Origin: Yuukianura sp. NJ FZ-2021
Taxonomy: Eukaryota
Reading direction: 5' to 3'
Assembly (NCBI GenBank): GCA_046563655.1
Contig: CM102289.1
Location: 1,426,001 to 1,490,000 of the forward strand
DNA length: 64,000 bases
This document shows positions 10,753-61,793 of this stretch, one piece after another. Position 1 is the first letter of the stretch. Every line of letters begins with the position of its first letter. The notes beneath the pieces were generated by a model. The model worked only from the letters and a program-made list of their open reading frames with translations. It ran no database searches and was not told the origin of the DNA. The translations under genes and the position numbers were made by a program.

Positions 10753-11310
10753 TTTACACAAAATACAAAGCGTTAAAAAATTATTCCTTTAGATTCGATT
10801 GTAAACTATTCCGAAATTTCATGACAATGCAAAACCAAAAAGCAAATTAAATTTTCTTTCCAACTTTTCTGTATTTTATATATTATAGATTTTTTTAGCA
10901 CATGAGTTCGCACATACCCGTGTTAATATTAAAATTACGGTAAAAGGAAAACATCAAATGTTCAAATGTTTGTGAAATTTTGGGGAAAAAAAGTTATAAC
11001 AATGGACTTTTGCCGTTTTTGTGCCAAAAACCAACACTCAAGTTAAATACTATCTCAATTTGCAATTTCACTTTCCGCTTTCATGAAACTTGTTTTTCGT
11101 ATTCTTGAATGTTGGACACAATAGCATCTTCAATCAATAATATAAAAACAGTGTTTGACGGTCCATAAATTTTGAAAACAACTTTTCGAAATTCAATAAA
11201 AAGTGAATTAATTAATTCATCGCTTACAATTTATGAAAATTGCTTTTAATACAAATTTGAATATTAGAAATACTTTTAATATATGCTGCATCTTCATTCG
11301 TTATCTGATA

Positions 11311-20076: not shown

Positions 20077-20808
20077 TCATTTCTGTGCGGATTCTGTGCC
20101 TATACTTGAAGTAGTTCCTTTAAGGTCTGGGTTAGTTAGGCTTGAATTAGATTTTCCGGTGTCTCGGGGAGAGTTTGGGAACTCGCATTTTTCTGGGTTG
20201 GAGGCAGGTTTACAAGCTTCTTTTGCTGAAACTACTTTTGGACAGAAGCAGTACACATTGTAGTTTTCAGCGTCGTAGAGGATTTTTGCCACAGTGTTGT
20301 ACACATTTTGTTGTCCGGCAAGATTCTTGGCCAATGTCAACCTATTCACAGATTCTCCGTCTTCGCATGCGAGTTGTGCAGGACGACAATTGTGATTGCA
20401 AATACATTTTGCAACACCCAAAGCTTCCTGGACAGTCATCAGAGCGCTGGCGGCGATTCTCAGTAAAGAAGTCACAGTAGACTTACCTGAGCCCCCCACA
20501 CAGACGTCGAATCCATTCTTACCAAACAGAGTCCCATTGCACGTATGGCGAGGTAGAGCTAAAATGAAATATTACGTAGTACTTTTACGTACTTTTTATG
20601 CAGTACATATTACGTCTCTGCATATTGCATATTGTAAGTAGTATTACATTAATTACATAAATTACATGACCTGTTTTTACAACAAATTTATGTAATTTCG
20701 GATTAAGCAAATTTACAACTCACTTTTGCCTCCGCTGGCTTGAACCGATGTTAAAGTCAATGCCCAAGAAAAAGCGAGAGCTGCAATAAATGCAAATGTT
20801 GTCGTCAT
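20077..20808 (-). CDS. Secreted 10-Cys protein, family copy 1 (exons 20808-20724, 20558-20077)
   Basis: Signal-peptide exon MTTTFAFIAALAFSWALTL, phase-1 intron, conserved AKCxCNxxC...CxDG...YCFCP...ACKP..NPEKCE; longer Ser/Thr tail than the other copies. Confidence 0.85.
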
Positions 20809-21130
20809 AGCGTAGCTGAACAGGAATTTCTAAAATCGCGAAATTGTTGCTGCGTTTGAGCCTTTTGAAAAAGTTTGGAAATTCTTTATGATTGAACAAA
20901 ACTTCCAAAAACTGAAGTTTAACCTTTAAGTTGATTATCTCCTATATTTAGTTACGTGCTTTACACAAAAACGCCGCTTTTTAAACCCCACTAAAAATTT
21001 GAACAATAGTCAAAGAATAGCTTTACAAAAATTAACAATTATCTACGTCAAACTTTTTATGAGAGAAACGCGCCAAGTTTAGATCGGCCGAACTCTTCAC
21101 TAAAATGTTTTTTTTTAAGGTAGAGTTTTC

Positions 21131-21897
21131 CGTAACCAGGCATTAACGGACGGTCACTAACGGCCCGATATACTAACGGACGGTCACGAACGGACGGTCA
21201 CTAACGGACGGTCACTAACGGACGGTCTCCAACGGACGTTCACTAACGGACGTTCACTAACGGACGGTCACCAACGGACGGGCACTAACGGACGGTCACC
21301 AACGGACGGGCACCAACGGACGGTCACCAACGGACGGGCACCAATGGACACATACTCTAATGGACACTTACTCTAACGGACGGTCACTAATGGACATTGA
21401 CACACCTTGTTTCAGTCACTGAAAATTTACAAATTTTTGAAACGCAGCGACAATAAAGTCGGCTCTGAATTCAAGTTGGCAACATTATTTACTAATTAAT
21501 TCAGTAAATCTGCTTTAATTTTCCCGCGCCGAAGGCGCGGTGTTAGGTTATAAAAATTGGCAGTTGTGATTAGGTTGTAGGTTAGGTTAATTAACTTAGG
21601 CTATTGCCGCTAAGTTCAAAAATCAGTTAATTTTCAGTGACTGAAGCAACGTGTGTCAATGTCCATTAGTGACCGTCCGTTAGAGTAAGTGTCCATTAGA
21701 GTATGTGTCCATTGGTGACCGTCCGTTGGTGCCCGTCCGTTGGTGACCGTCCGTTAGTGCCCGTCCGTTGGTGACCGTCCGTTAGTGAACGTCCGTTGGT
21801 GACCGTCCGTTAGTGAACGTCCGTTGGGGACCGTCCGTTCGTGACCGTCCGTTAGTATATCGGGCCGTTAGTGACTGTCCGTTCGAGTCCGGGAATC
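21131..21897. mobile_element. Non-autonomous foldback/MITE-like element with ~285-bp inverted arms built of 14-bp subrepeats
   Basis: (aacggacggtcact)n on the left and its reverse complement on the right. Unique inner arm sequence is also inverted (21395-21428 vs 21629-21661). Direct repeat gagttttc at 21123-21130 and 21898-21905. Confidence 0.85.
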
Positions 21898-22026
21898 GAG
21901 TTTTCAGTTGAATTTTTCGAATCTACACTAGTAGAAATTCTGTTTTACTACACACACTACTAAACTACACAATTTCCATAAGTTGAAAACGGATACACAT
22001 TGATATTTTGAAGGCATTGTAGCAAT

Positions 22027-23412
22027 TTATTCTCCTTCAGACTCAGAACTGTGAAATTGCACCAGCACCACGTTGTAAGGAACAACAGCACTCAAAATCT
22101 AACAAATTTAAAAATTAAACTTAAGCAGTGCATGGTTTCTGTTCTGTATTTGTGTTGTTAAATTTATCCTTACCGATGTCAGTAATGTTCGATTGATTTT
22201 GAAATAGCCAAATGCAGTTAGTTCAAATTTTGCAACTTTTCTTAACTGTTTCAAGTAAGCCAAACTCTCTTGGTCTGATACAGTCATTGGCGGTATCAAT
22301 ACAGTGCTGTTAAAAAGTGAATTGCTCTAAAACGAAATAAAAACAAAATTTTACAACGAAGTGTTTACAACATTATTTTTTAAATGTAAGTAGTTTTTGG
22401 TTACCTTTGATGCAAGTTTTTGTCCGCAGTTAGTGAGCCATACTAGTTTCAAAATTAGTACAGCTAAGCTACCGAAATTAATTAGAAGCAGAACAGGCAA
22501 CACGTTGTAAATAAGATTCATTGTGCTACATACATGAAAAGTTGTCACAGTAAGCAGAAAAGAAGTAAAACAAAGTTCAATTACAAGAAATAATTGAACT
22601 CCATTTGCAAATTTTTCAAAAATTTGATGCAGGTGGATTATTTCAGTTGAGATAAAATTGAAATCCGGTTGCAAAAACTTTTTATACCAAATTCCAGATT
22701 TCAAATTTTTGGAAATTTCAGTCACACGATGCTCCACATTCAACAGCTCCTCAACTTTAGTTAGCCGTTGCTCTATTATTAGTGTTATGAAAGAAATGAG
22801 TACGATTACAAAAATACTTGGACATGTGACTAATTGCATAAAAACTACAACTAAAGTGTTCAAAATTTTGACCGGAATGTGCAATCCATAAAGTTCATAG
22901 TTTGGAAAAATTGATTCAAAAATTAATGTTCGGTCGACGACAAAAATGGACTCAAGTATAAAACTTCCAACAAAAAGCGGCAAAACTGGAAATATTGCTG
23001 AAACAAATTCTTTTGGTGTCAAATTGCATCGAAGTTTGCTGCTTTTGATGTACTTTTCAATTGTACTAAACATTTGAATTGTTCTGGGCAAACAACACAT
23101 GTAGGCCAAGTATGTGCTAGTTATGTAGGCCAAATTGGTCCAAAACATTAACAAAAGAAGCTGCTCGTGTAGATCTGAATTTAATTTGGCTGCATTAATT
23201 TCTGCCTTCACGGCCGCACTGTCAAATGGGACTACGAGTGGTGCACAACAAATGACACAACTGAAAACAAAAATTGTGCAAATTCCATTCAAACTCTTCC
23301 AACTTAATTTGTAAATTGACTTTCTGATGTCCACAACCGGGAAAAGAGCTGTAAAAGCACCAAAATATGCAATAGTTTTTAGCAAAGTGGAGTCAGAAAG
23401 ACGGAAACCCAT
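22027..23412 (-). CDS. Gustatory receptor copy D (exons 23412-22405, 22326-22174, 22098-22027)
   Basis: Intact paralog; TM7 motif reads PYNVVLVQF. Confidence 0.85.
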
Positions 23413-24395
23413 TTTACGAAAAAAGGAAAGCGTTAGAATAGTTTCCGCAGATTTGATATTAAACAGTTGCGGAATTTTGTGACAATGCAAAAGCCAAAAG
23501 AAAAATTAAATTTTTCTCCACTCACTTTTCTTTATTATATATATTACAAATTTTTTAACACTCGAATTTACATTTACTCTGCATAATGACATTAGGGTGA
23601 AAGGAAACCGCCTAAGAATCAACGTTTGGTGAAATTTTGGAAGAAAGAGTTATAACAATGGACATCTTTTTTTCATCAAAACCCAACACTTAAGTTGGAT
23701 ATTTCAATTTACAAATTCACTTTTCGAAATTTGTGTGTTTTTTCTTGTAACGGTTGAATGTTTATTTTTGTATTTCTGTTCGTTTTAGACACATTGTCGT
23801 TTTTGGTAAATTCATGCAGAAACAAGGTAAGTCTTTCTATAAATTTCAAAAACAACTTTATAAATCTGTATAAAAATTGAATTAGTAAATTCATGACATT
23901 ACAGTTGACGGAAAACTTGAAAAAATACAGATGCTGTACAGTGTTCAGCGCAAATTGAAAATTTTCATTTTGAAATCTATTGTGTGAAAATTCTTTTGTG
24001 AATTTTAGACAAGAGACGTAGAACTAAATTGAACTAAATTTTTTCTACAGACGCCATACTCATCAACAAAACTCCATTCCTCTGTACTTATAACCAAGAA
24101 AGACACAATGCCTTACAAAACATCGTCCACTTGATGATATTTTGTGTTTTATTTGTGTAAACTTTCACTTTCCTTTGATTGACATCTAAGGACGAAACTG
24201 GTTTATGATTTCCAATTCTGACGAAAGAAGAATGCTGTAACCACTTCTGCTCTTGCAACTGATCATCCATTTCAAGAAATTTAGTTACTTTGTTAGTATA
24301 AATTTAGTTACTTTGTTACTTTGAAATTACTTTGAAATTTAGTTACTTTGTTTGTATAAATTTTACAAGGTAAATAAGAAAATTAAAAGTTCACA

Positions 24396-25969
24396 ATGGT
24401 TCATCAATTTCGATGTGGTTTTGTTCTTCTATTTATTTTTGTTTTACATTCTCAATACTTTTTTGGTGTCCTCAGTAGCGGAAGTTCAACCGTAAAACCG
24501 AAAACGAGACTACAATATTTTGAACTACGAAGACAAAAGCAAGTCGTAAGTATTTTCTTTTTTAAGGGGAGACATCAGGTCAATAAAAACAACGCCAAAG
24601 AGTGTTTTGTAGACATGGCAACGACTGAGAATTGCGAATTTAGAACTACGTAATCACGAAAAACCCGAACGGGTGGATTCTTTACGATTGAAATTTTGAA
24701 CAACTCTCAGGCTAACTCGCTAATCACTGTGTTAAATTTCAAATTTGAGAACCATTTGCCGTTTTTCTAAAACTGTCAGACGAAGAGGATGAGCCATTTC
24801 TTAGCCTCAATTCTCAGGTTGCCCTAACTCTTGGTGACGTAATACGAAATTGTAAATTGTAAACACAAAATTCGTGGACTCTGACCCAATCTACTGGTGC
24901 ACTTCCTGACTGATTGGTAAGACCCTCAGAAAACTACGACCACACTTTTCGCATTAGCACACGCTAATAAACATCACACCGATGGACTATATGACGAAAA
25001 CAGGAGCCTTCGTCCAGAAAACTTAGGTTTTCTGGATTTCCGCGGGGATTTCAGAAACATCTTCCAGAAAACCTAAGTTTTCTAGCCTTAGGGTCCTGTT
25101 TTCGTCATATAGTCCATCGGTGTGATGTTTATTAGCGTGTGCTAATGCGAAAAGTGTGGTCGTAGTTTTCTGAGGGTCTTACCAATCAGTCAGGAAGTGC
25201 ACCAGAAGTCTTATGGGGAATTAGGTAATAAGCGAATCTGTCCATCGTAATCTTAATTAGGTTTTTCAAATGCCTAAGTTGTAGTTTGTAAATCATACTT
25301 CAAAATTTGTATAAGAAAACTTGAATTTTCAAAACGTTATGAACCATAACCTAAACCTACCACTTTTTAGCATAATCTGCAACTTTTTCCATTTTCTAAA
25401 CAGACCACGTCACTGCCTAGCCCATCTCCAACATCAACACGGAAACAAAAAACGACGACTGAAGCCACGGTAGACGATGAAGAAGTTGAAAAACCTCGCG
25501 TTTTTGGAAACGCTCGCGGCGGGGAACAAAGTTCAAACGAGCCGGAAGTTTCAGAATCCGAAGATTCAAAGGAAAAGTCAACCCCCGAAGTAACTTCCAA
25601 AAGGACTAAACCTACTTTGAATGGACGTCGAAGCTACTTGGAGTACTTCCGTCCCGGAGCTCGAAACAAGGTCGGGGCTCGATTCTTGTCAAAAGCAAAT
25701 TGCCAATTTTTTAAAACTACTTTTTAAAAGTTGTTTGGTGTGATTTTTAGTCAAGTCCGAGAACGACTACTACAAGAGCTCCAAGAAAATCCAAACCGAG
25801 GGAAGAATCTAACTCAAATGCTTCAGCTCCACCTAGTGGCTGCAGTGAATGTCGGTTTTACTGCAAACAGTGTCGTGGAACTGAAGAAGTTTCTACTGGC
25901 GGAGTATGGGGATGCTGCAACCATAACTGTTGTGGCGGGAGGTGTAGTTGTCAAAAAGTTCAAATTTGA
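24396..25969 (+). CDS. Secreted S/T/E-rich protein with a C-terminal 10-Cys domain (exons 24396-24545, 24613-24649, 24780-24817, 25404-25670, 25751-25969)
   Basis: Signal peptide MVHQFRCGFVLLFIFVLHSQYFFGVLS and phase-consistent GT-AG exons. Last exon encodes ...GCSECRFYCKQCRGTEEVSTGGVWGCCNHNCCGGRCSCQKVQI*. The two small middle exons are less certain. Confidence 0.72.
24894..25205. repeat. Intronic palindrome / MITE-like element: 112-bp inverted arms plus an inner 21-bp inverted pair
   Basis: 24894-25005 is the reverse complement of 25094-25205; inner pair agaaaacttaggttttctgga / tccagaaaacctaagttttct. Confidence 0.9.
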
Positions 25970-26422
25970 AAAAAAAAGTTCGAAATGTTCAGAATCTGAA
26001 CAACTTACTTAATTAGTTTACTACAAACTTGATTCTATTTGATTATACTATTTTTAAATTTGAAGAGAAAAATTTTTGTACAATTTGCAACCTGAAATAA
26101 TAGCAAGCAGTATTTTGCTGTTTTCAAATTTCTAAAATTTTTGTGAAATTCGTTCTCGCTTCAACAGTTGCAAAATGAAGAGTCAATTTTATTTAAATTG
26201 TATAAAGCAAATTGGATAGCAATTTTTTTTGCACATTTAATTATTGGATGAAAACGTAAACAACATTGGAAATTGCAAAATTATAGAACATTTTAGGTAT
26301 TGAGGAAGTTGTAAAAAAAAAAACAAAGTTTAAGTTTAAAATTAAAGTAAAATGGTGCCAAAATTTAAATAGTATACAAAGTGAAACTGCCGGAAGTAAC
26401 TTTGTCGGTTACTTAAATCCAT

Positions 26423-27076
26423 TCATGGCCCTGGTGTTGGGTACTCGCATTTCTGTGGTTTGTTGACCGACTTGCAAGCGTCTTTTGCAGAAACAAATTC
26501 AGGACAGAAGCAAATGGCCTGGTAGTTTTCAGCGTTGAAGAAAATTTGTGATAGTGCGTTGAGCACGGATTCATGTCCAGCAAGGTTCAGCGCTAATGTC
26601 ACCGCATTTACCAGTTTTCCATCTTTACAGACGATTGTAGGCGGATGACAACTTTGGTTACAAACACATTTGGCAACACCCAGAGCTTCTTCAACAGCAA
26701 ACAGAGTGTCTGCAGCGAGTTTTAGCAGAGAACTCTCAGTGTTCGTACTTTTGTCAAACACGCAGACGTCAAATCCATTATTTCCCAAGAGTTGCGCATT
26801 ACAGGTTTTGGCAGGCGTGGCTAAAATAAAATAATATATAGTATAACATAATATAAGTTGTCCAATTAACACACTTTTTGCACTTAATTGTCAAATATTA
26901 CTACATCACATATTGCATAGCACTTTAAAATATTACATGATTACATATTATATAATTTGTGAGCATGTTATGTTAAAACAAACTTGAAACTTACAACCTC
27001 CCCCTCCTACCATAACCGACGCTCGCGTTAGTGTTGAAGATGCTAAAACTGCAAGGAGCAAAACTGCCGTCGCCAT
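26423..27076 (-). CDS. Secreted 10-Cys protein, family copy 2 (exons 27076-26995, 26820-26423)
   Basis: Signal peptide MATAVLLLAVLASS, same intron position, conserved Cys pattern ending NKPQKCEYP. Confidence 0.87.
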
Positions 27077-27586
27077 GGTTTCCGTAGTAGCGTTCCTGAA
27101 CTGAAATTTTGAAAAAGCGCGAATTTTTTGTTGCTGCTACTGCTTGAGTCCCGACTTCCAACTGAAAGTTTTTTCGAACTTTTTCTTTATAAAGTCAAAT
27201 TCGGACGCTCAGACAAACGAAAAAGGTCATTTCAAAAAAGTTTATTTTTAAAAAAAGTGTTAAAAAGATCCTTTGTTTTTGAACAAAACTTTTCAGGGTT
27301 TGGTAAAATTTTAAGCTTTATCTTGGTAATGCGGTGTCTATTTTCACGTTTTTCGGAAAAACTTTTTTTGTTGTCCCCGATGAACAATGAACAAGGAAAT
27401 GCGTTTCCTTTAGCCTTTAGCAAACTTTCAGAGAAGCAATTTTCCAAAACATTTATTAATTTTTATTAGAGAAAAAATTAAAAGATTTGCATTCTTGAAA
27501 AGAAAAAACAAGTAGAGTGGCACGAAATTTGAATTTTGAAAACTACAATTGATGGAAGTGGCACAACTTTTAAGTTCACTTTTATT

Positions 27587-28205
27587 TCATTTTTCTTCTG
27601 TGGAATTTGGATACTGGCATTTCTGTGGATTGGGGACCGGTTTGCAAGCATTTTTCGGCGAAACGTGTTTTGCACAAAAGCAGTGCAGCGTGTAGTTTTC
27701 AGCGTGGAATATAATTTGTACCAGTGCGTTTAACACGGACTCATTTCCAGCAAGGTTCAGTGCCAATGTTAACTTATTGATCAAATTTTGATCTTTACAG
27801 ACGACTGTTGGCGGAGTACAGTTTTGGTTGCAAACACATTTTGCAAGACGCATAGTCTCCAACACAATGCCCAAACTGTTTCCAGCAAGCTTCCCAAGAG
27901 AACTCGGAGTGTTTGTACTTGAATCAAACATGCAGGCGTCATATCCGTTGTCTCCAACCAAAGCAGGATCACATGTCTTAGGGGGCGGAGCTAAAATAGA
28001 ATTTATATCTAGCAATATATATTACATATTCTACTGCAACATGTTGCGTAGTACTGTTACGTTAAATAGATAACATTATTAGAGTAATAAATAATAAGTT
28101 TATTTAACATATTTAGAACTTACATGTGCGTGCAATGGCTTCAGCCGATGTTAACGTCAATGCCCAAGATGCGAGAACAGCAAGGAGTAAAAATACTGTT
28201 GCCAT
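27587..28205 (-). CDS. Secreted 10-Cys protein, family copy 3 (exons 28205-28124, 27990-27587)
   Basis: Same two-exon structure and Cys pattern. Confidence 0.87.
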
Positions 28206-28544
28206 GGTTTCTGTAGTAGCGTACTGGACTCAAATTTTAAAAGTGGCAAATTTTTTGTTGCTGTCTCCTGAAAAAGTTACCGTAACCTAAATCGCGTATT
28301 TTCCAGCAATTGCTGTAAGACACTACTAAAAGTTTAACCTTTACCTTGAAAATTTCATTCATAATTTCATTGTTTAATTACTTACATTCTCTATAAAGAA
28401 AACCTTTACAATACTCTTTTACAATACTAAAATTTTTCAAATAATGAACAAAAAACAGACTTTACAAAAACTATTCAAACTTTCATCAAAATTTTTATTA
28501 AAGAAGCAATAATTTATTTAATAGCTTGAAGAGGATCGCAGTAT

Positions 28545-29140
28545 TTACTGCCCTGAACTCGGGTATTCGCATTTTTCAGGATTGGCGACAGGTTTACAAG
28601 CGTCTTTTGCGGAAACTTGTTTTGGGCAGAAGCAATGTACTGCGTAGTCTTCAGTATTGGCAAGTATTCGTACTAATGCACCAAAAACATCCTCGTGACC
28701 TTCCAACTCCAGTGCCAATGTCAACAAATTGACCAATTTCCCATCTTTACAAACGAGTTGTGCTGGATGACAACGTTGGTTGCAAATACATTTCGCAACA
28801 CCCAGAGCTTCTTGAACTGTTAGCATAGTGTTTTCTGAGATCTGCACAAGCAAACTCTCAGTGTTGGCGTTTGAGTCAAAAAAGCATGTGTCGTAGCCAT
28901 TCATTCCGAACAAAGTGGCGTTACATGTGGTAGAATGTAGAGCTAAAACAAAAAATTACAACACATAATTGATTTTGAATAGCATAATATGACTGTTACT
29001 TTTTTTGAATAGCAAATATTCTAACTCGAATATTATTTCAAGCAAAAAATGTACTTACGTTTGTTTCCAGTCAGAAGTTCACTTGAAGTTACCACCCAAA
29101 CTGTCATAGCCGCAAAAAGCGTCGGGGATACTGTCGCCAT
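28545..29140 (-). CDS. Secreted 10-Cys protein, family copy 4 (exons 29140-29059, 28942-28545)
   Basis: Same two-exon structure and Cys pattern. Confidence 0.87.
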
Positions 29141-29864
29141 GGTTTCCGCAAAGTTTTTAAAATTTGTAGCTTAATAAATAGTGGGTAATTAGTTGTTGCT
29201 GCTACAAGTTCAGTTTTGGAAATAAAATTTCTAACTTTCAAAGGTCAGAATCAAAAGTTTTCTTTGAAAAAAAGAAAAAAATGATTTTAAAGAAGAATGT
29301 TTTTGTTCAGAACCCACAGTTCTTCGTTTTTACTAGAACTAAACAGAATTTTAGCAATTTTTTTACCCACTGATTGAAATTTATGTAGTTGTTCAACTAT
29401 TGCCTTGTGAAGTCTTTTGTTGCAATACAAATACAACAGTATGTATTTCAAAAACCAAAAGTCATTTTAAAAAGTTTTTAAAAAATTTTCCACTAACCTC
29501 GCTGAAAAATCTATTGCTTATGATGAAAACTTTTAAACGCAAATACACACTCAAAAGTTTCGTGGAAAACCTTTTTTGAACAATGTAAAAATGCTTTGGA
29601 AGAAAAGTAGTAATTCTAAAAACGAAACTGAAAAGTCAAATTTTGGAACAGTTTTTTCACATATCCAATTGTGCTACTTTTTTGTTTATTAATATATAAC
29701 TAACGTAGAACCCTAACATAACATAGCAATTGAATTGAAATTGTAGCAAGTTAAGTACCAAATGTAACGTACACATCAAGTTTGTGACTACAACAACATT
29801 TTTGTGTTACAAAGGTAAAATGGCGTCAAAATCATATTCAAAAAAAAACTTCCGAAACCGAGCT

Positions 29865-30535
29865 TCATGATCGGGAATTTGGATACTCGCATTTTTGTGG
29901 GTTAGCAACTGGTTTGCACGCTTTCTTTGCTGGAACGTGTTTTGGACAGAAGCAGTAAAACTGGTAGTTTTCACTGCTATACATGATTTGCGCCAAAGTG
30001 TTGTACACAGACGCATCTCCGATTTTGAGGGCCAATGCCAACTTACTCACCAAATGGCCATCTTTACAGACGAGTTGTGAAGGACGACAACTTTGATTGC
30101 AAACACATTTTGCAGCATGCAAAGCTTCTTGAACAGTAAACAGAGCCTTTGCTGCCATTGTCATAAAAGTAGTCGCAGTAGTATTACTTGAGCCCAACAA
30201 GCAGATATCGTATCCATTTTTGCCAAACAGATTCCCATCACACGTTTGGGGGCCTAAAATTGATTAAAATATAGTATAACATAATTTAATTGGTTCAATT
30301 AACACATTTGCTGGTTGCCAAATATTACTACGTAATAAATATTACACAATCACATATTAAATCATTTATACTTCTCATATTACGTCATATTGCATAGTAG
30401 TAATACACTAATTAAATTACATTATTACATTAAGATTAACTATATTTACAACTTACGTTTGGCTCTCCTGGCTTCAGTCGATGTCAATGTCAAAGAAAAA
30501 GCGAGAGCTATGAGGAGTAACGATACGGTCGTCAT
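29865..30535 (-). CDS. Secreted 10-Cys protein, family copy 5 (exons 30535-30457, 30253-29865)
   Basis: Same two-exon structure and Cys pattern. Confidence 0.87.
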
Positions 30536-31323
30536 GGTTTCCGTAGAAGCTAGTTAATTTTTGAAATCAAGTTTGTTGTGTGCTTTTTGAAAAAAATTAA
30601 AATTCTTTATTTATGAATATAAGCTATAAAAACTTACTGGAATTTTAACCTTGTACGTTGATAATCTCGTGATTAATTACTTATGCTTTACAGAAAAACG
30701 GCACTTTTTGAGCCTTACTAAATTTTTGAACAATAGACAACAAAAAGCTTTACAAAAATGACAATAACCTACGTCAACATTTTTATTAGAGAGGCAATAA
30801 TATTTTTCATTACAAAGCATATTGACCGCCTACCGTATTTGGATATACGAATTTTCTGGATTAGCTTTTTGAATGTTTTGTTAATACGTAGGAGTCAAAT
30901 GCATTAAGAAGGAAAAAGAGCGTCTCCAAAAGTAAATTTTGAACGAATCTCACACGGAACTTGTATTCATGGCAATTTTTTTTCTTACAACCTAACTACT
31001 TCGTGCAGAACCCCGAAAGTTTTTGAGCAGTTTTCAAATTTAGTAAATTTAGTAAAAAATTTCCAAAACGTTTTCTACCGAAAAATTATCGGTGCCGAGT
31101 CGAATTGTACTGCAGTTTTCTATAAAAAGTTTTATTTGGATACAAACGAAACCAAAGTTAAAAACCAAACATGAACTAATCCAACTGAAATTTAAAGAAG
31201 GGAAAACACAAAGTCAAAAGTTAGTTGCTCAACAGCCTTTAAATGTTAATAAGATTTAAAAAAAATTCAGCAAATGAAGAAAATGGCGCCAAATTTGATA
31301 CATTCGAAAAAGAAATTCAGAAT

Positions 31324-32166
31324 TCAAGCTTCATGGTCGGAGTTCGGATACTCGCATTTTTCTGGGTTGGCGACTGGTTTGCACGCCTTTTTTGCTGAAA
31401 CTTGTTTTGGACAGAAGCAGTAAATCTGGTAGTTTCCAGTGTTGTAGAGCATTTGAGCCCAAGTATTGTACACAGACGCATCCCCAACCACACGCCCCAA
31501 TTTCAACGTAGTCAGCAAATGTCCATCTTTACAGACGAGTTGCGAAGGACGACAACTTTGATTGCAAACACATTTTGCAGCATGCAAAGCTTCATTGATA
31601 GTAAAGACAGCGTTTGAGTAGAGTTTTATAAAAGAACTGGTTGGAGTCGAACTGGAGCCCATCGCACAAATGTCAAATCCATCCTTGCCAAACATAGTCG
31701 CATCACAAGTTTGAGCAGCTAAAATAAATTAACATAGTATAACAGAATTTAATTAGTTCAATTAACGCATTTGTTGCCAAATATTAAATGATTACCACAC
31801 CTGTCAAAAATATTTACCAAAAACCAGTAGATCATTTACGGACATAATATTAAGGGCGTGGGTGAATAAATAAATATTCAGTAACAAAAGAACTGAAATA
31901 TTGATTTTGTTCATTACAGGCGTGAGAACTAAATATTTTTGGCAGGCCTAATAATTAAGTATTAAATATTACACCATCACATATTAAGTCGTTGCATATT
32001 TCATATTAGTATGACATTAATTGTATAAATTATATTAAATTGATTAAAATTAAACATACTTGCATTACGTGTTTAACTTACGTTTGCCTCTCCTGGCTTC
32101 AGTTGATGTTAACGTGAATGCCCAAGAAGAGGCGAGAGCTATGAGGACTAACGATACTGTCGTCAT
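31324..32166 (-). CDS. Secreted 10-Cys protein, family copy 6 (exons 32166-32082, 31718-31324)
   Basis: Closest to copy 5; intron enlarged by an insertion. Confidence 0.87.
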
Positions 32167-32802
32167 GGTTACCGTAGTGACGTAGCTGGACTTTAAAATT
32201 TGTTTCCGCTTTGTAAAAAAGTTTAAAAATACTTTCTTTTTTTTAATTTTGAATAAAAGCTTTTACAACTCACTAATAAAAGTTTGACCTTTAAGTTGAT
32301 AATCTCTTGTTTAATTATTTATGCTTTACAGAAAATCTACAGTTTTTAAACCCTACTAAAAATTTTGAACAATGGGCAAAGAAAGCCGTAACAAAAACGA
32401 AACTAACCTTTGTCAAAATTTTTATTAGAAAAGCAATAATATTTTTCTGTAGTTACCGATTGTAATTCATTTGTTCTGGAATTCCTTTTTGATTTTTTTG
32501 TTAATACGTAGGAGTAAAGCGCAATGAAAAACGAAAGCGCTCTTTCGAATAGTATACTTTGCACCAATTCCACACAAAAAAAGGGATAGACATAACAAAG
32601 AGTTAGAATTCAAACATGAACTAAATGAATTGAAATTGGATAAACGGACAACACAAAGTCAAAAGTTTAGTTGCTCTAGATTAAAAACTTGATTTCCATT
32701 TCATTAAAAAACCTTATTGAGTAAATGGTTCAAATTCCGTCAAATTTAACAGAGTCAAACGGGAAATTGAAAAATTAATTTTAATTTTTCAGTTTCTCGT
32801 GT

Positions 32803-33422
32803 CTATGCTCGGGAATGTGGATACTCGCACTTTTGTGGATTGTCGACTTTTTTGCAAGCATCTTTAGCCGAAACTAGACCTGGACAGAAGCAGTAAAACT
32901 GGTAGTTTTCAGTCTGGTAGATGATTTGCGTTAGTGTCTCGAGCAGACCCTGGTAACCAGCAAGATGTGTTTCAAGTAGCAGCCAGTCCACCAATTTTCC
33001 ATCTTTACAAACGATTTGTGATGGATGACAACTTTGGTTGCAAATACATTTTGCAATACCCAGAGCTCCTTGGACTGCAAAGTCAGGGTTTCCCAGAATA
33101 GCCAGAAGAGTACTCTCTGTATTCGTACTGGAGTCCATCACGCAGATGTGAAATCCATTATCGCCAAACAGAGTTGGGTCACATGTTGCGGGAGGTTGGC
33201 CTAAAATAAAATAACATTTTATATAATTAAATAACTAGTTTTTAATAGCATAATATCTTAATATGTTACTGCTGTTGAGTTGAGTAAAATATTTCCATCC
33301 AAATACTATTTTAAACATTTTAACCATAAAATCAACTTACTTTTGTTTCTCGCCAAAAATCCACTTGAAGTTACCGTAGAAACCGGAAGAAACGCAAGAA
33401 GTACGAGGGATACTGTCGCCAT
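32803..33422 (-). CDS. Secreted 10-Cys protein, family copy 7 (exons 33422-33341, 33200-32803)
   Basis: Same two-exon structure and Cys pattern. Confidence 0.87.
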
Positions 33423-34044: not shown

Positions 34045-35089
34045 ATGGATAATTCTCTACAAAGTCATATTGGAAAGTGCACAGCTACGCTCACGGGAAC
34101 TCTCACTTATAAGAATGTACAATGGTTCCTCGTCCACAATAGACGGGAAGCACATATTCGGATTTGCTTCATTCTTCCGGAGGCAATTGGTGGTAAGTGA
34201 TTGTTTGCATTAAAATGTAATAAGTACGGAAAGCTACTTCATATTGTCCAGTTCTATGCGCCTCTCCAAGGTTCCTTGACACCGAAAAGTTAATTCTCTC
34301 TAACTTTTCGGGAAGAGGTTAAGTAGTACCTTGTAGTTTGGATTCACTTGTATTGTAATTCGGATTGTCTGCCAATATTGGTACCAATTTTTGTTTTTTC
34401 ATTTTTTTGTCAACAAGTGAGGTAGTACTTAACCTCTTCCCGAAAAGTTAAATAAAATTAAATTTTTGTTGGCAAGGAACCTTTGTGCCTCTCCGTCAAT
34501 CCGTCTGTTTGTCTGTCCGACATTTGTATCTGCTTGGCGGTAAATAGTCGATTTTGCTTCCAGGTTGTGCACCACATGTTTATTTCGCTACTTACTATAC
34601 TTCGTTTATAACGGGTTATTTATTAGAAAATTAGTATATTATGAAATGTAATGCTAACGTTTGTTTTAGGAAAGTCTGTCATTGGTTTCACCTTCGGTGG
34701 ACTGAATAACCCAAATACTTTAACCTCCTTAGGAAAATGCTCACAACAATATCGTATTCAGCAAGTTCTGAAAGGAGAGGTTGATGTGGTGACAGTCAGA
34801 TTCAAACCTTACGGTAAATCCAAAATTTTATGAAGACAAAATTTCAGCGACTTTGGTTATATGCGTAACAAATTGTAGCCAATTGTTTTTCCGTTAAAGA
34901 TGCTAATAGCATGAAGGAGCTCTTGTCTCGTTACACCTTGCTCGGTTACATTCTAGAAAATGTAAGTTTTTTTAACCATTTTTGCCAAATGGAGAAAAAT
35001 TTTATGAGAAACGTATTAACATATCATTTTTATTCGTTTTTGTGTTGGGTGGCGTAAAGATCACCTCGACCTCACATCGAGGGTTTTGA
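34045..35089 (+). CDS. Orphan 127-aa protein, paralog 1 (exons 34045-34192, 34670-34813, 34900-34961, 35060-35089)
   Basis: MDNSLQSHIGKCTATLTGTLTYKNVQWFLVHNRREAHIRICFILPEAIGGKSVIGFTFGGLNNPN...MKELLSRYTLLGYILENITSTSHRGF*. Exon sizes 148/144/62/30 mirror paralog 2. Confidence 0.78.
34268..34483. mobile_element. MITE with ~65-bp imperfect TIRs and an 11-bp target-site duplication
   Basis: Ends aaggttccttg...caaggaacctt; flanks tgcgcctctcc (34257-34267) and tgtgcctctcc (34484-34494). Confidence 0.8.
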
Positions 35090-45067: not shown

Positions 45068-48000
45068 ATGGGGTCCAAATCAGCTGTTCCCGGCTTCTAT
45101 GAGTTCCTCATCGAAGCAGAACTGCAACAATACTACAATGCGCTTAAAAACGAACTCAAGGTGACATTAGCTAAGATTTACTCTCAGTCAAAAGTTAGTT
45201 AGTAGTTAGTGTAAAAATATGGACAGGACAGGTATAGTATAACTGCTGAAGTTGTATCAAGATAAACTGCAACTTCTTTTCTACATTACAGGTCCAGAAT
45301 GTGTCTCAGCTCAAGTACGTATCAGAAGATGACATGGCTCACATCGGAATGTCCAGGCCCGAAATGCGGCGACTCGTCAAGTTCTTCCACAAACACTGTC
45401 CACAGACTTACCTCGCCAAAATGAAAAAGGTGACTCACAGAGATAAATAAATATTGATCGTAATTAGCCAGTTTGTTTTTAATTCCATCTTTCCCTCTTC
45501 CTTCTAGAAACTGCTTCAACGACGTGATGACTCTACTAACTCTGCTGCTCTGTCTGGTCCATCCTCAACTATTCCTGGCCGTTCACCTCGAGCTATAGCT
45601 CCAGGTCGGCACATCATCCAAGCAGATGCAATCGTTAGGTATAACTACACAAAACATCTCTTTGTTTGTTCAGTGCAGGGTGTTGGTAATCTAATTTGAT
45701 CGGTATTGATTAGTCATAAGACGCTTGGCTCAGGAGAATTTGGCACGGTGCAGCAGGGTGTTTGGACGAGCGAAGAGGGAGAGCGGGTGAGTCACTTTCA
45801 GAATTACTTCCTTTTACGACTTCTTCTCAACTTTCATTTTTCCCTGACGACTAGAGTTCTGAAAACTTTTCTTTTTCTGTTCCAGATCCAAGTGGCCATA
45901 AAATGTCTAAGTCAAGAACGAATGGAGAATAACCCGGTGGAGTTCTTAAAAGAAGCGGCCATCATGCACAGTGTGGATCATGAGCATATCGTCCGACTTT
46001 ATGGAGTCGTCCTCGACACTTCATCACTCGTCCTCGTAATGTCACAAAATCTACCATAATCGTAGCAAAATCGTTTTTATCCGTCAGTGATTTCAAGAAA
46101 CTTGTTTGTTTTTTTTTTGGTCGAAGGTCACGGAACTCGCTCCACTTCGCTCTCTCCTGGAGTGCCTTAAGGTACCACTAAAAACTGCTGCCGCCGTATT
46201 TCAGTACTCCGGCAGTGCTACTGCCTCCGCAGCACATTTTGAGCCTTTAAAAGTGAAAACTCTAAACATTTGTGTTCTATTTCACAGGAACCATCAATGC
46301 GTCCAAATCTCACCATCCAAACCTTATTTGACTTTTCGATCCAAATTTGTTCAGGCATGGAGTACTTGGAGTCAAAACGACTCATCCATCGGTAAGTTTT
46401 TCATATTATGTGAGAAATGATATGAAAAAGGTGTGAAAAATGGCACTTCCTTGAAATTTTTTAGCACGCTTTCCACTCCTTCGCTCCTTACATCACAAGT
46501 TGCTGAGTCGTCATTCACTCAATCCAGTTTATTTGTGTTTCTGTTTTTAGTGACTTGGCTGCTCGTAACATTTTGGTTTTTTCCAAGAGCAAAGTGAAGA
46601 TATCGGATTTCGGCCTCTCTCGAGCTCTGGGAGTAGGAAAAGACTACTACCAGACCAACTTTAATGTCAACTTGAAACTTCCTATTGCTTGGTGTAAGTT
46701 ATGGAACTCAAGATTTCATGCAAAACTAAAACTTTTTTTGATTTTCTTTTTTGGATTCTGGTTTTAGGTGCTCCTGAATGCATCAACTTCCTCCGGTTCA
46801 CTTCTGCCTCGGATGTTTGGGCTTTTGGTGTCACGCTATGGGAGATGTACAGTTACGGGTTCCAGCCATGGGCTGCCCTCACTGGACAACAAATTCTGGA
46901 TTCCATTGACGAACCAAACTATCATCGACTGGAACGACCAGAATCCGCTCCAGCTGAAATCTACTACCAAATTATGCTCAAATGCTGGCAGCATGACCCA
47001 GCTGATCGGCCAACATTTGTGGAGCTTCTGAATCTCCTACCAGAGGTTGGTTATTTGAAACGTCAACGTGAAAAAAAATCATTCAATCAATCAATCCGTT
47101 TATTGATTTGGCCAATGCCCGATAAATTACATTCCTGCAGCATTAAAAAAAAACTGAATTTTTCATATATTTTTTCAGTGTAAGCCGGAGCTGGTACAGG
47201 CCATTCGTGAGAGTAGTGGAAAAAGCAGAGATTATTTATCTTTTGAGCCAGGAGATCTCATTACTGTCATTGACAAAAAGTAAGCAAAACATTCCCTTTC
47301 AAAAAATGTAAATCCAAAAAAAGATTGTTTTTTGGATTTACATTTTTTTTGAAATTTACATTAGTCACTTGTGACTGATCGACTCCAAGTGCTACTGTAA
47401 TCTTATCCAGTTCATTTCCGGTGTTTCTACTCAGCGATTTCTTGGGTTGAGTCCAAAACCGCAAGTTCACATGCATCTTCCTCTTGTGTCAACTGTCAAT
47501 GTCAGTACATGAACACGAGAGGATGAATGTGCACTGGAATGAAATTAAATGTTGGACAATTGCCAATTAAAATGCGTTTCTTGTATCTTCCCACACACTT
47601 AGTGCCGAGATAAATCCAAACTAATTGCTTTTACATTCTACACATAATTTTCCGAATCAACGCAAGCGGCACTTCCGAGTTCTAATTTTAGAACACACTT
47701 CTTGCCCTATACATAGGAAATTTTCTTTTTACAAGTGAATCATTCTACATTTTTTATGCTTGTTACTACAGAATTCCTGGCGCTGAAGATACTGGGGCGC
47801 TGGAGTGGAAAGGAGTTTTAAAATGCGGGAAAACAGGATTATTCAATCCAGCACATACGATTACTTATCTCGGGTCCAGTTTACCATCGGCCAAGGATTT
47901 GTCGCAGCGATTTCAGCGCAACGGTAACAACAACAACTTGATGCCACTTTGACATTGATCTTGAATGATTCATTCAAATATGTTTGTCAGCGAAGCACAC

Positions 48001-52021: not shown

Positions 52022-53791
52022 ATGTCCACGGGATCAACCCTGATCCGGTTCCTGATTGGATCAATTCTGGTGGTAACTTGTACAACTTTTGCGTCGTCCC
52101 ACCAAGAAAGCCCCACCGGAAACGACGTTTTTCTGGACACATTACAGGCGGAAGTAGAGGGCAACGTTAAAGAAGCTCAGCAGGAATTGGTCACTGAAGC
52201 CAAAGCAGTCGCTGCCGCTACTGAAAAATATGCCAAGGTCAAGCTTGCTCAGAACATCTTTCGGGTGTGTTTTTTTTTTTTTTCAAAAATTTAAAGCATA
52301 ATTTTCGAAAAAATTTTTTTTGGTCGAAAGGTCAATGACCTCATCTTGTCTGGATTTTTTTTCAGGCCCTGAGAGTCTTGGTACTAAAGGAGCTGGAGCA
52401 GGTTCCGTTGCAACTGCGTATGCGTCAACCACGTCAAGAAGAAGCAGAAGAGTCACCGTCAAGCGGATCTGGCGACGATGAAGACACAAACGACACTTCG
52501 GGAGGCAGTTCGGCCGAAACGGCATCCACGACGAAACGAACTGTGCCGCTCATTCCGGTCGTAAGTGACCTGTACCGAATTTTTAGGCTTTTGCAATTTT
52601 TTTTTGTTTACGAACCTTGGTCGGTTTTGCCTTTGCAGTTGGCGGGAATTTTGAAATCGGTGCTCGGAGGAGGGGAAAACGCGACAACACAGCCACTGAA
52701 CGTCACTCATACGATCCAGAACCTTCTGTTTCCACTTGGAAATCCGTTTCAAGGAGTCCAATCGCTGCTAAACCGTCGTCNNNNNNNNNNNNNNNNNNNN
52801 NNNNNNNNNNNNNNNNNNNNNNNNNNNNNNNNNNNNNNNNNNNNNNNNNNNNNNNNNNNNNNNNNNNNNNNNNNNNNNNNAAACCGTCGTCGTCCCACCG
52901 CTGCTCCAACAACGGTAATCAAGTACTATCCAGTACCGGTTTACCCGACGACTGAAGCCCCACCACCGACTAAAGCCACCACTCCACTGCTCCGCCTGGT
53001 GGGGCGTGAAAATATCCGCGTCAGACGTCATGCTTCTCCTCTCGCTCCGCGTAAGTAAGAACCGACAAAGATTTTGCAAACAACGCTGAATTTATCCGCG
53101 CGTCGATAAATTCACAACTTTTGAAAACCAAAATTAAGTGAGTTTTAATTTTTCAGGAGCCGAGAGTGATTTGAACCGACAAGTTCCTGCCGCGCCACCA
53201 TTTCAAAATCCCGCCGCTTCTTATGTCTATGCTCCCGCTTACGTTAATTCAAATAAACAAAAAATCACGGAATTCCCGCCATCCGGTACCACCGACTCTC
53301 CTATGCTAATCTACGCTCCGAAACATGTTGTCGGTAGCGCTTATGCTCCACTTCACGTCAACCCGCCAACACAAGATTCGGTTTTACCGGGAAATTCAAA
53401 ATTAACCGCCGACACGACCACTCGAGCTCCAGTAAAACACAGACCACAAGAACTTTCGCTTCCGGTTTTTGCCGAAGCATTTCCCGATCCGACAACGGTT
53501 GCTCCTCCCACCGTAAATTTCGTTCCCACGGTAACGAATCTTCCGAAAGCTGCCGTTCCGGTGACTACGATCGTTCCGTCGGTATCGGGCGGCACTAAAA
53601 ATTCGGAGGGAAATTCAAATACGACCACAACGACTCCAGGCCTGATCTACGTTGATTCCTTGGCTCGCGATGTCCAAAGCAGTTTTGACGGTCTCGTCAA
53701 AAATTTACCGGACATTTTGAAGGGAGCGAAGGAGGCAATTGGACTACTCGCCAATCTCCGAGAAATTTTTGGAGAGGAAGACGACGCTTAG
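52022..53791 (+). CDS. Secreted Pro/Thr-rich low-complexity protein (exons 52022-52237, 52366-53050 spanning the N gap, 53157-53791)
   Basis: Signal peptide MSTGSTLIRFLIGSILVVTCTTFASS, phase-consistent splice sites, P/T/A-rich body, amphipathic C-terminal helix. Confidence 0.8.
52781..52880. other. 100-N assembly gap with an 11-bp overlap on both sides
   Basis: aaaccgtcgtc at 52770-52780 and 52881-52891. Confidence 0.95.
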
Positions 53792-57366: not shown

Positions 57367-58636
57367 CGTGTCTTCTGAAATGAACAACAGAAAGTACGAT
57401 CCTGTTGCCACCGTAAATCGCAGTCACGTAGTAGTACGGTTGTAGGCAAGTGACGAAAATGATGTCCAGATGAACTTGAAACGCAGTGGTTACGTCCGTC
57501 CGTTTATCTGAAATGAAAGATAACAAAACAAGTTTAAAATCTGATGTTTTTTTTAGAATGAAAAGACATGAAGTTTAGACACACGAAATAAGAACGACTA
57601 CAATAATCGCGGAAGTATAAACGCAAGGGCATGAACAGACAAACGACAACAACAAGGAGATTTGATTGTTGAGGGAGTTTGGCTTGACAGTACCCAAAAC
57701 CCTAACTGTTTCAATTGAAAAGTTCTAAACAATGGTTTCCATGGAAATGGATACAGCGTAACCACCCCCGTGACCTTCCTGGCCCTGAAGGACGAATAAA
57801 GTTTGTATCTCTCGGAGCGGAGAAGTGGAACGGAAGTTGATATCAAATGTTATGAGAACGATTATTACCTAATTTGCCTTTGATCTCCTCTCTCAATTGA
57901 ATCCAACCCAGTAACGGTTACCAAGACACTTTAACATTAGAATAGAGAAATTACTTACGTTTTGAATTCTTTGGAGAATCAGCGAATTGATCTTATTTTT
58001 ATAGTAGTAAATCAGTCGGTCGTCGTCAGTATTATATTGGTACACGTACAACTCTATCAAATGTAGTAAGGATCGGATTATCTGATGATCCGGAGAATAA
58101 GAACAAAAGAGGTCGGATAGTTTACTAACATTAACTTATCTAAACGGGTACTACAAAGCTAAACTATAAAGCTACAAAGCTGAATGTCCTTGGTGCAGTC
58201 CAACCGGATGACTAGGCTTTTCTCATGATATGACATGAGTCATCTGTGTTTTGTTGATGTCTTGAGTACCGTAAATAATCCATGAGATGCCTCTTTATAA
58301 AGTAACCTATTAACACGATGTGTTTTACACGATGCAATCTCTGAGTAGATACTCCTCAAGGACAACTCAACTCGATAAAAGTTAATTGCTTTTGTAATTC
58401 GATCAATTGTCGACGATGCAGAATTCCTAGATGCGATGAACATAAAATCCACATCGATGTTCATCATCATCCACCATCCAGTTCCAGCAAAGTTTCACTT
58501 TAGTGATTAGATTACCAACAGATTTACTACATAAAGTGTTTTTTACATGTACACATTTTTCTCTTATTATTACTCATTCAGCAACATTTATTAACGACGG
58601 AAAGAGAGATAAAAGATTTATGTCTAAATCACTTGC

Positions 58637-58703
58637 CTCATCAAAATCAGGCAAAAGCCTTCGCATTCTGCGATTCATGCATTTGCCGTCATAAAGGATC
58701 AAG
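58637..58703 (-). promoter_or_regulatory. SECIS element (type II) in the SelT 3' UTR
   Basis: Minus strand reads AUGA-C-GGCAAAUGC-AUGAA-UCGCA-GAA-UGCGA-AG-GCUUUUGCC-UGAU: GA quartet core, helix II, unpaired AA and apical ministem. An AATAAA follows at 58592-58587. Confidence 0.85.
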
Positions 58704-58840
58704 TTCTCACGACACTCACTGCTTTCTCTTTCCATCGAATTAATGTTTGTGGATTTACCTTACCTCTACTATAACATAAAATCAAATGGTTCATAACAAT
58801 ACGGTAAATGACACGAAATCACAAAGAAGGGATAGAATGA

Positions 58841-59744
58841 TTATAGGTCGTAGTTCGTCTTGAATTGGTAGTTTTGAGCTGCTGCGGAAAGTTGTGGCTC
58901 CAGAATATGCACCAATTCTTGAACGGAAGGCAGGCGACCGCTTTCAAGTTTTGACCAGACTTGGACATCTACGAAAAAAAAATTAGAATCATTGACACTT
59001 ATTGATTGATTATAGGATATCTTAATTTAAACTGGAGTACCATTAAGATATATTTCGAAAGCACCAGTGCTCATTAACTGCGACTCAAGGAAATTGCTTA
59101 TAAAGAAGGCCATAAGACAAGCGTAGATTTTGTTCTGTCGCATCCACTCGATTCTACTTGCCGGAATGTGAAGGAATTGAAGAAGTGCAAACTGGTTGAA
59201 AACTAAACTTCCTATCACCACAAACTTAAGGATTCCCTGCAACAGTAATTAAATTAGATTCAACTTGTCGTATTTTGTTGTCACCAACTAAACATTGAAT
59301 CATCTGCTCCTTACTAGTACTTGGGCTAATATTTGTCTCCATGTCGCTGGTGGGTAGTTGCTTCCTTCCATGTAAAGGTCAGGAAATCTATGCGTCAGTA
59401 CTTGAGCAAACTGCGCATAGGCATTCCGGTACCCTCAAGAGGAACTGAAAAATGAAATCAGAATATTCAACGTTAGCACGAGATCTTTGTTTTACGGTAG
59501 CAGTAGCAGTCGTGAGCAAACCCAGAGATTTTTACAGTCAACCGATTGCTTACCAGTAGAGGAATTTAAGCTCGGGTACGTCCGGAGCTGATTTTGTTAC
59601 TGAAACCCCCAGTTCATCTCCAATTGCCGCATGATCACCATGTTCGCCTGCATGTCCATCGTCAGGTGCCATAGCCTGGTACACTTCCCGGAGTGTAAGA
59701 GCGATGGCCAGCATGATTATATAGTGTTGTGTCTCGAGAGCCAT
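58841..59744 (-). CDS. SelT: Selenoprotein T with Sec (UGA at 59437-59435); exons 59744-59554, 59444-59315, 59236-59041, 58968-58841
   Basis: LKFLYCSS-UGA-GYRNAYAQF...FPDLYMEGSNYPP...NKIYACLMAFFISNFLESQLMSTGAFEIYLNDVQVWSKLESGRLPS, the SelT/Rdx family signatures. Confidence 0.93.
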
Positions 59745-60372
59745 TACGAAAGCTTCGTCAACACTGCTGCCGCTGCTCGCCTAATGAAGAACAAGATTCA
59801 ATGGGCATTAGATTAAAAATGTAATGTAATGGCTGGATAGTTAGCGTTAGTATGCTATGCTGAACAGACAAGTTGAGACAATCAATGTAACTTTACCTAA
59901 AAGAGGAAAAATACGAGGTTAAGGTTCGTCACCATCAACTTCTACAGTAAAAATGTCCGTGTTACACTGAAAATTAAAGTTAGTTAACTAAAACTAAAGG
60001 ATGAACATAATTTTGTAAATGATCGTCTGCGGTTAATTACAATTAACCCAATTAAAACAATTAAATTATTCAATTAATCACCCAATCCGATCCCGATCAA
60101 ATCAATCGGTGCGCCCTACCTTCAAGTTTCAATTCGATTGAATGTGCCCGTGTCGTGTCCCCCTCCTCGTCCTCTCCAGTTAAAATGAAGTAATTGTAGA
60201 GGTTACACACATTTTTTCACCCATACAGCTAGACGATAGCATATGGACAGTCGTCGAGTATTTAATTAAAATTAAACTATTAAAAATTATTTATAGGACC
60301 AACACAAAAATATTAAAAAATCATATTTAATCACGTTTCAATTAAAATATTCATTCATGAATTGATCTAATC

Positions 60373-61059
60373 TTAAGATTTCCGTTGAAGTAGCATGAAA
60401 TTGGTCATACTGTCGAACATGTAAACTCCAGGATCAGTTAATTTAGAATTAATTAGTGGCTTAACCATTTCATTTAAAGTTTCTAAATCATTTTGTAGCT
60501 GTTCACAGTTGGACACAGACGGCTCGAAATTCCTGTACCCATACGCAAGCGTTATATGAAATCCCGGGAATATGCTGTCCGCAGTCTCATAAACGGCGGT
60601 CAAACGTTGTCGGACGTGTATCATCTTTTGGTGGTAATCATCGTGCAGGGTAAGGTTTAGTTTCAGAACAGCGAGTTTGTGACCATCCACGGAACTTCGG
60701 AATGTCATGTCCTTGATTCCACTGACAGATGCCGGCAACTCCGACAGAATCGCTGAAGCTTCTTCGTTTTGCTTAGCAAGTACTTCGTCTGGTAACCATC
60801 CTTCGACGGGAACGGTCACCGCAGAATCCTGCTCGAGCCAACGCTGCACTGGAGGTATCAGTGGACCTTTCTTTGTGGTATAAACATTAAAAATGGTCAT
60901 ATGGTAAGACTCATGCGGTAGCGGCGAAAAGTACTCCGCAAGGGACGAGGTCCGAATGAAATTTTCAATCCTAATCCCAAGATCTTCCGGATGCTCAAGC
61001 ATTACGAGAGTTGTGTATCCATAAAACGGTAAATACTTCCCATTGTCATCCAACTTCAT
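60373..61059 (-). CDS. 2H-phosphoesterase (DUF1868-like), single coding exon, 228 aa
   Basis: Two HxT motifs (LPHESYHMTIF and FHITLAYGY); N-terminus KLDDNGKYLPFYGYT; upstream GT-AG intron at 61192-61118 in the 5' UTR. Confidence 0.8.
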   Translation of the reverse strand: MKLDDNGKYLPFYGYTTLVMLEHPEDLGIRIENFIRTSSLAEYFSPLPHESYHMTIFNVYTTKKGPLIPPVQRWLEQDSAVTVPVEGWLPDEVLAKQNEEASAILSELPASVSGIKDMTFRSSVDGHKLAVLKLNLTLHDDYHQKMIHVRQRLTAVYETADSIFPGFHITLAYGYRNFEPSVSNCEQLQNDLETLNEMVKPLINSKLTDPGVYMFDSMTNFMLLQRKS

Positions 61060-61793
61060 CGTGTGCGTGCCTTTCGAATGAATTCGGCCGCCTGAATAAC
61101 CAAAGTACTCCAATTACCTGACAAAGAATTGCTTCATAAGAACAAGTGAACATAATTATTAATTAGTATAATCAAGAAATGTCAGAACTTACCAATACCT
61201 AGATATTAAAGCGTAGATTCTAATCAGAACGAAAACAGTTAGTCAAGGGTTTGCAGTTTTACACCACTACGTCTGGAATTGGAATTGCCAAGAGTTAGGC
61301 TAATCAGCGGAATCGGTAGAAAACGAGAATCAGCGGCGCAGTCTTAACTGCAAACAAAAATAGGCTGACGTAAGGCAAAAGTGCATACGTGTAAAATACG
61401 GTTCAAATATATTTTAAAATTATAATATATATTTCACAACATGTAATAATTCATACATATAGTCATACAACATACACATACGTATATATATGTCATCTGT
61501 GTAATAAATGCACGGCGGTATGAAACAACGAAATTGCAAAAACATATTGTGTCCTTTTCAAGCAGCATAACGCTAATGCATTAAAAAAAATTAATTTTTA
61601 ATCTATTTAAGTACCTTGAATTTACGTAAAGAAATTAAAGCCAAGGTTCGTAAAGAAACACATTGTTTATTCTACACTGTAGTAAATACCATTTGTTGTA
61701 TTTCTTTTGTCAAAGCACCTTGTTAAAAACTTACGAATAGTTCCAGTTACTAATAATTATATTAATGAAGTTTTAATGATGGTACGCCGGTGA

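Follow-up and report, generated by a model that had tools for sequence, protein, structure and literature searches.

A predicted selenocysteine-encoding selenoprotein T gene with a conserved type II SECIS element in Yuukianura sp.

Does the in-frame TGA at codon 67 of a four-exon gene in Yuukianura sp. NJ FZ-2021 end the protein, or does it specify selenocysteine (Sec)? The gene lies on the minus strand (59744-58841) of a stretch of 64,000 nucleotides of contig CM102289.1 (positions 1,426,001 to 1,490,000), hereafter the window, from whose first letter all coordinates are counted. An earlier sequence-only reading had proposed that it encodes a selenoprotein T (SelT), with the TGA at the redox position of a CxxU motif and with a type II selenocysteine insertion sequence (SECIS) downstream of the stop. 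Homology, comparative and covariation tests, described below, supported this reading in its gene model, family assignment, Sec position and SECIS, and we consider it very probable that the locus is a functional Sec-encoding SelT gene.

The minus strand was read from 58300 to 60300 and the borders of the gene were located by script, giving four exons, three GT..AG introns and a product of 214 amino acids. The coding part of exon 1 (59744-59554) begins with an ATG at 59744-59742, encodes a hydrophobic N-terminus and ends in the TG of a split Cys codon. It is followed by intron 1 (59553-59445; 109 nt, GTAAGC...TTTTTCAG, phase 2) and by exon 2 (59444-59315), which carries the CxxU redox motif and the first helix of the Rdx fold. 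Joining the two exons reproduced the junction from which Sec had originally been deduced: ...TAC TG, ending at 59554, and T TCC TCT TGA GGG TAC, starting at 59444, together read Y-C-S-S-UGA-G-Y-R, with the predicted Sec codon 67 at 59437-59435 and a G directly after it. As had also been proposed, the frame stays open past the UGA, running across intron 2 (59314-59237; 78 nt, GTAAGG...TTGCAG), exon 3 (59236-59041; the SelT-type hydrophobic helical insert and a conserved STGAFE strand) and intron 3 (59040-58969; 72 nt, GTACTC...TTCGTAG) into the coding part of exon 4 (58968-58841), which begins with VWSKLESGRLPS... and ends at a TAA stop (58843-58841). Codon 67 is the only in-frame TGA among the 214 codons. 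Use of an alternative AG, 11 nt into exon 2, would take out the TGA and put the rest out of frame, with a stop soon after, so that no in-frame splice around the TGA is available.

Assignment of the product to a family was approached first at the level of the separate exons and then with the spliced protein. The Pfam Rdx domain (PF10262; 74 positions, cut-off 22.6 bits) gave colinear matches to exon 2 (domain positions 6-30, 16.7 bits), exon 3 (35-53, 12.2 bits) and exon 4 (51-72, 18.3 bits), all three of them below the cut-off because the introns and the insert divide the domain. A word-index protein search with exon 3 and longer proteins returned 17 candidates, none of them significant; phmmer, run exhaustively with exon 3, then gave 244 proteins at E<=1e-3. 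Source names were looked up for 20 of the proteins, most being without a name; those with one were Selenoprotein T (goat, goby and Daphnia magna) and thioredoxin reductase-like selenoprotein T (Daphnia carinata, Daphnia magna and a mite), and thus the nearest named relatives are SelT and not SelW, SelH or SelV. With the spliced protein, blastp reached E values of 1e-41 to a Daphnia SelT entry and 7e-41 to the goat 'Selenoprotein T'. Residues 75-213 were 58-59% identical to the nearest cluster (P0001), and two further database proteins aligned at 46% (P0003, residues 32-205) and 35% identity (P0006, residues 1-203), the alignments spanning all three exon junctions. The SelT homology noticed in the bare sequence was thus borne out by Pfam Rdx, phmmer and blastp, as well as by the named relatives. 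SelT is a thioredoxin-like oxidoreductase of the endoplasmic reticulum type, and the sequence evidence supports the window protein being a selenoprotein T of the Rdx family, with a predicted redox centre Cys64-x-x-Sec67.

Hydropathy along the protein agrees with this assignment. It reaches 1.3-1.9 over residues 97-133, with its peak of 1.9 at residues 103-121, in keeping with a hydrophobic helical insert between beta2 and beta3, which we take to be typical of SelT and absent from SelW and SelH. Residues 1-25 are likewise hydrophobic (Kyte-Doolittle value of about 1.1), and residues 27-56, ahead of the core, are acidic or His-rich.

Taken as a true stop, the TGA would leave a decaying or truncated gene giving only a peptide of 66 residues, as the standard code, which ends the frame at codon 67, would have it. 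The relatives of the gene bear directly on this reading. Metagenome contigs were scanned, with 268 matching stretches as the outcome; 180 of these encoded relatives, and the best 80 loci were kept. The contigs coding for five of the database proteins (P0003, P0006, P0041, P0083 and P0089) lay outside these 80. When the spliced protein was aligned to the best 80 of the 180 relatives, the codon opposite U67 was TGA in 56 loci, TGT in 7, TTT in 4, and TTA and TCT in 1 each, and was not covered in the remaining 11. The closest of these relatives, L006, is a contig of 1692 nt, identical to L017 over 1178 nt, and the whole protein aligns to it in one unbroken piece, which indicates that L006 is a spliced transcript. 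Its product is 56% identical to the window protein over the full length, and both L006 and L017 share with the window the MALETQHYI start, the CSSU motif (YCSS-TGA-GYRNAY) and a type II SECIS with a ministem of 5 bp and a loop of 3 nt. Ahead of the TGA, 36 of 66 residues are identical between the window and L006, with a proportion of nonsynonymous differences (pN) of 0.325; past it, 88 of 143 residues are identical (62%), with a pN of 0.236 against a proportion of synonymous differences (pS) of 0.726. The part past the TGA is therefore the better conserved one and, with pN far below pS, evolves as protein under purifying selection. A gene truncated at codon 67 would hardly be expected to keep three downstream exons in frame with intact GT..AG sites, such conservation of the residues past the TGA, and the TGA itself in 56 of the 80 relatives, and we regard a true stop as very improbable.

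The relatives also bear on a further alternative, according to which the codon is an assembly or sequencing error for TGT or TGC, the gene encodes a Cys-form SelT and the downstream hairpin is coincidental. The window is known from a single assembly sequence, and Cys forms do occur, both in the 7 TGT loci and in a mite protein (P0077) that has Cys at the Sec position. The closest independent relatives nevertheless all carry the TGA together with a downstream SECIS, namely L006/L017 and the genomic contig L068, which shares with the window the three intron positions, the TG|T split codon, the TGA and the SECIS, and whose N-terminus is MALETQHYI with one change. That a SECIS should lie by chance on the right strand and less than 150 nt past the stop is moreover unlikely, as the match described below is the only one in 128 kb. 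We consider a sequence error the least probable of the alternatives weighed here.

Of 158 database relatives, 27 cover the Sec column, where they show Cys (13), Trp (6), a gap (3), Ser (2), or Gly, Met or Leu (1 each), and many of the other database relatives begin just past it. These odd residues look like the work of gene callers that use other genetic codes or truncate selenoproteins, the Trp, Gly and Ser entries presumably being TGA read under other codes. In a SelT tree, the window protein grouped with L006/L017, P0003 and P0006 in a supported clade (99/99), L068 being outside the tree sample; the backbone of the tree was unresolved, and the Daphnia entries fell outside the window clade.

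The fold was modelled with AlphaFold on the L006 relative, with its TGA read as U and with 50 aligned sequences (predicted local distance difference test score, pLDDT, of 82.6); a single-sequence model of L006 (pLDDT 43) was not used. The model shows a strand, the CxxU turn, a helix, a strand, a long helical insert, two strands and a helix, with the CxxU motif between strand 65-70 and helix 76-90 and the insert helices (105-169) between strands; the region corresponding to the hydrophobic residues 1-25 of the window protein is helical in it. Its best matches in the PDB were SelW-related proteins, MIEN1 and mouse SelW, with template modelling scores, normalized by target, of 0.72-0.86, the Rdx chains of about 80 residues being stretched over about 150 columns in the alignment to the model. 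Read whole, the L006 protein scored 63.4 bits against the Rdx cut-off of 22.6 bits.

If the TGA is decoded as Sec, a SECIS element is to be expected in the 3' untranslated region (UTR), and one of type II was recognized at 58704-58631 (minus strand) by the Rfam family SECIS_1, by the minimum free energy (MFE) fold, by a covariance model built from a relative and by covariation. Every canonical feature that the sequence-only reading had listed was found at its place. Helix I is formed by 58704-58694 with 58639-58631, and the AUGA (58692-58689) and the 3' UGAU (58649-58646), which supply the AUGA...GA quartet, flank helix II (58687-58679 with 58658-58650; 8 of 9 pairs). Above it stand the unpaired AA (58675-58674) and the apical ministem of 5 bp (58673-58669 with 58665-58661), closed by a GAA loop. 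The distance from the A of the AUGA to the start of the AA is 17 nt, identical to that in L006, and helix I, helix II and the ministem were all predicted in the MFE fold. The hairpin had been placed about 140 nt past the stop, which agrees with a SECIS_1 match starting 140 nt on (first base 58700) and an AUGA 148 nt on (132 nt in L006); the outermost pairs of helix I start a few bases ahead of the match, at 58704. An AATAAA polyadenylation signal, also noted earlier, is present about 40 nt past the SECIS stem (58592-58587, minus strand) and is the sole AATAAA from the stop to 58560; it is probably the one in use.

The match to SECIS_1 (RF00031) covers 58700-58635 on the minus strand and model positions 1-64, that is the full length of the model, at 28.1 bits (E of 0.0074 for the 2-kb region). 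When the whole window was scanned on both strands (128 kb, E up to 10), only this one of 16 weak matches to any Rfam family was to a SECIS (E of 0.24), and it sits on the coding strand, in the 3' UTR of the gene. SECIS_1 itself proved to be a blunt instrument for this group: among 20 TGA-bearing relatives, 10 matched it at E<=1 and only 4 reached the Rfam gathering score of 35 bits, L006 and L017 (36.4 bits) being among these 4. With 16 of the 20 below the gathering score, the SECIS_1 model is evidently not sensitive for the SelT group. We give more weight to a covariance model (R1) built from the SECIS of L006 alone, with a structure written by hand. Run on 242 kb of sequence, made up of the window and all 80 loci, R1 had 7 matches at E<=1, namely L006, L017, L068, L001, L031, L043 and the window element, the last at 58702-58633 with 24.1 bits (E of 0.005) and as the only R1 match in the window. 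A looser descriptor (AUGA, AA spacing, at least 8 of 9 helix pairs and one bulge allowed) matched at 20 places on both strands of the window and was dropped for the covariance models because it was too unspecific, and a MAFFT alignment of 11 SECIS elements was kept out of the structure counts, its 3' arms being misaligned.

Helix II and the ministem of the metagenome relatives differ from those of the window element at most positions in sequence, with the pairing kept. In an alignment of 6 sequences, fitted to the structure of the model in a way that favours pairing, 91.9% of the cells pair, as compared to 37-45% after a shift of the partners by 1-3 columns; changes on both sides were found in 20 of the 21 SECIS pairs, and the observed values were reached by none of 500 shuffles. 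The small size and the fitting of that alignment are among several points that weigh against taking the locus for a functional Sec-encoding gene. The SECIS score of 28.1 bits lies below the Rfam gathering score, and no Rfam family attained its own gathering score anywhere in the window; the stability of the hairpin is unexceptional (z = -1.4), with 19 of 200 shuffled sequences folding at least as well; helix II carries a U.U mismatch; no tRNA gene was found within the window; and the modelled structure is that of the L006 relative and not of the window protein itself.

A last alternative accepts that translation passes the UGA and holds that a standard residue is inserted there by near-cognate decoding, as proposed for the insect SPS1-UGA genes. 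Those genes do keep a conserved in-frame UGA where no Sec is used, according to a passage of PMC4561486, which also describes them as lacking a SECIS; the SelT gene, by contrast, has one in its 3' UTR that covaries with those of its relatives. Its UGA moreover falls exactly at the redox position of the CxxU/CxxC motif, where 7 loci have Cys. Readthrough without Sec is highly unlikely in our view, although it is the alternative to which we allow the most room.

A Sec-encoding SelT gene would thus be expressed as follows. The mRNA would be joined from the four exons and would end past the AATAAA, and the type II SECIS in its 3' UTR, about 590 nt past the UGA, would recruit SBP2, eEFSec and Sec-tRNA(Sec). 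On the established eukaryotic Sec pathway, a ribosome arriving at UGA codon 67 should then insert Sec instead of terminating, and the organism should possess the Sec machinery. The SelT gene would in this way mark the organism as a Sec user. For annotation, the gene should be entered as a selenoprotein of 214 amino acids. Standard gene callers terminate at the UGA or begin past it, a failure apparent from the database proteins of the relatives, which start past the Sec codon or carry Trp, Gly or Ser there.

Several other features were noted in the window. Directly upstream of the SelT gene lies an intronless open reading frame (ORF; 60373-61113, minus strand) of the DUF1868 / 2H-phosphoesterase type (Pfam PF08975, 25.2 bits), with relatives at 33-38% identity, the best named of which come from fungus gnats (Bradysia; 33-34%). 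A set of four paralogs, each a single ORF coding for about 350-385 amino acids (7321-8370, 9724-10788, 18004-19143 and 22351-23505, all on the minus strand), has many hydrophobic segments and a common C-terminal ...LVWLTNCGE(R/K)LASKVT motif; the two examined had no Pfam match at E<=1e-3, and the four may represent a lineage-specific family of multi-pass membrane proteins, perhaps chemoreceptor-like. Seven ORFs of 132-164 amino acids with many conserved cysteines form a tandem array on the minus strand (20077-33234) and share the motif ...CVCNQSC.P...VCKDG...CFCP...AC.K...P.KCEYP, the one ORF examined having no Pfam match. On the plus strand, exons of an ABCC/MRP-type ABC transporter (15211-16837; PF00005, 109 bits) have their best named matches at about 50% identity (at most 53%) across animals, fungi and plants, and a tyrosine kinase exon is found at 46698-47183 (PF07714, 95 bits). 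A run of X at about 52800-52910, within a Pro/Thr-rich ORF (52339-53058, plus strand), reflects a stretch of N, that is an assembly gap. Weak Rfam matches on the plus strand to the plant families MIR7533 (34267-34484; 53.5 bits, cut-off 230) and MIR9486 (24995-25103; 36 bits, cut-off 100) are most likely hairpin-forming repeats and not members of these families.

Compared with known systems, the window protein has the general build of vertebrate SelT. It is about 46% identical over 133 residues to the goat (P0021, UniRef A0A452EZS1) and goby (P0010) proteins and has in common with them the Rdx core, the hydrophobic insert and the GYR...STGAFE...VWSKLESG blocks; vertebrate SelT likewise combines Sec at the CxxU position, predicted for the window protein, with a SECIS in the 3' UTR. 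Residues 27-56 of the window protein are unrelated to the vertebrate sequences, its motif is CSSU, and it has 214 amino acids where the goat entry, which looks mis-predicted just ahead of the GYR block, has 199. Identity to the Daphnia selenoprotein T entries (P0026/P0284), which are mis-predicted around the Sec codon, is 48.6% over 140 residues, with the same order of domains. In Drosophila, the SelT homolog carries Cys, although no passage stating this was found. Sec-form SelT is widespread: a passage of PMC2375036 gives it for algae and a diatom, and one of PMC3473315 for six invertebrates; a passage of PMC3840058 has SelT expressed in a tick. The Drosophila selenoproteins listed in PMC2375036, in the passage concerned, are SelH, SelK and SPS2 only.

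For springtails, a passage of the genome paper PMC5644144 counts 6 tRNA-SeC loci and 4 SECIS matches and goes no further, and our full-text literature searches brought up no account of a springtail selenoproteome. Should the organism be a springtail, its SelT gene provides one data point for the time at which hexapods lost most of their selenoproteins. A Sec-form SelT would then help to show that on land the Collembola retained a larger selenoproteome of the 'non-insect' kind, a proposition that we regard as evenly balanced. If it is true, the collapse of the selenoproteome came after the springtail split and not at the base of the hexapods, which would sharpen the statement, made in a passage of the centipede paper PMC4244043, that places the loss at the base of Insecta.

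That a terrestrial arthropod has a Sec-form SelT is already published for this centipede, and the recoding mechanism is textbook knowledge. Passages of PMC4244043 describe SelT and SelT2 among the 20 selenoproteins of Strigamia maritima, each with a SECIS, together with a full Sec machinery. Strigamia maritima thus has two SelT genes where one was seen in the 64 kb of the window and, compared by description and not by alignment, it resembles the present locus in combining a Sec-form SelT, predicted in the window, with a SECIS.

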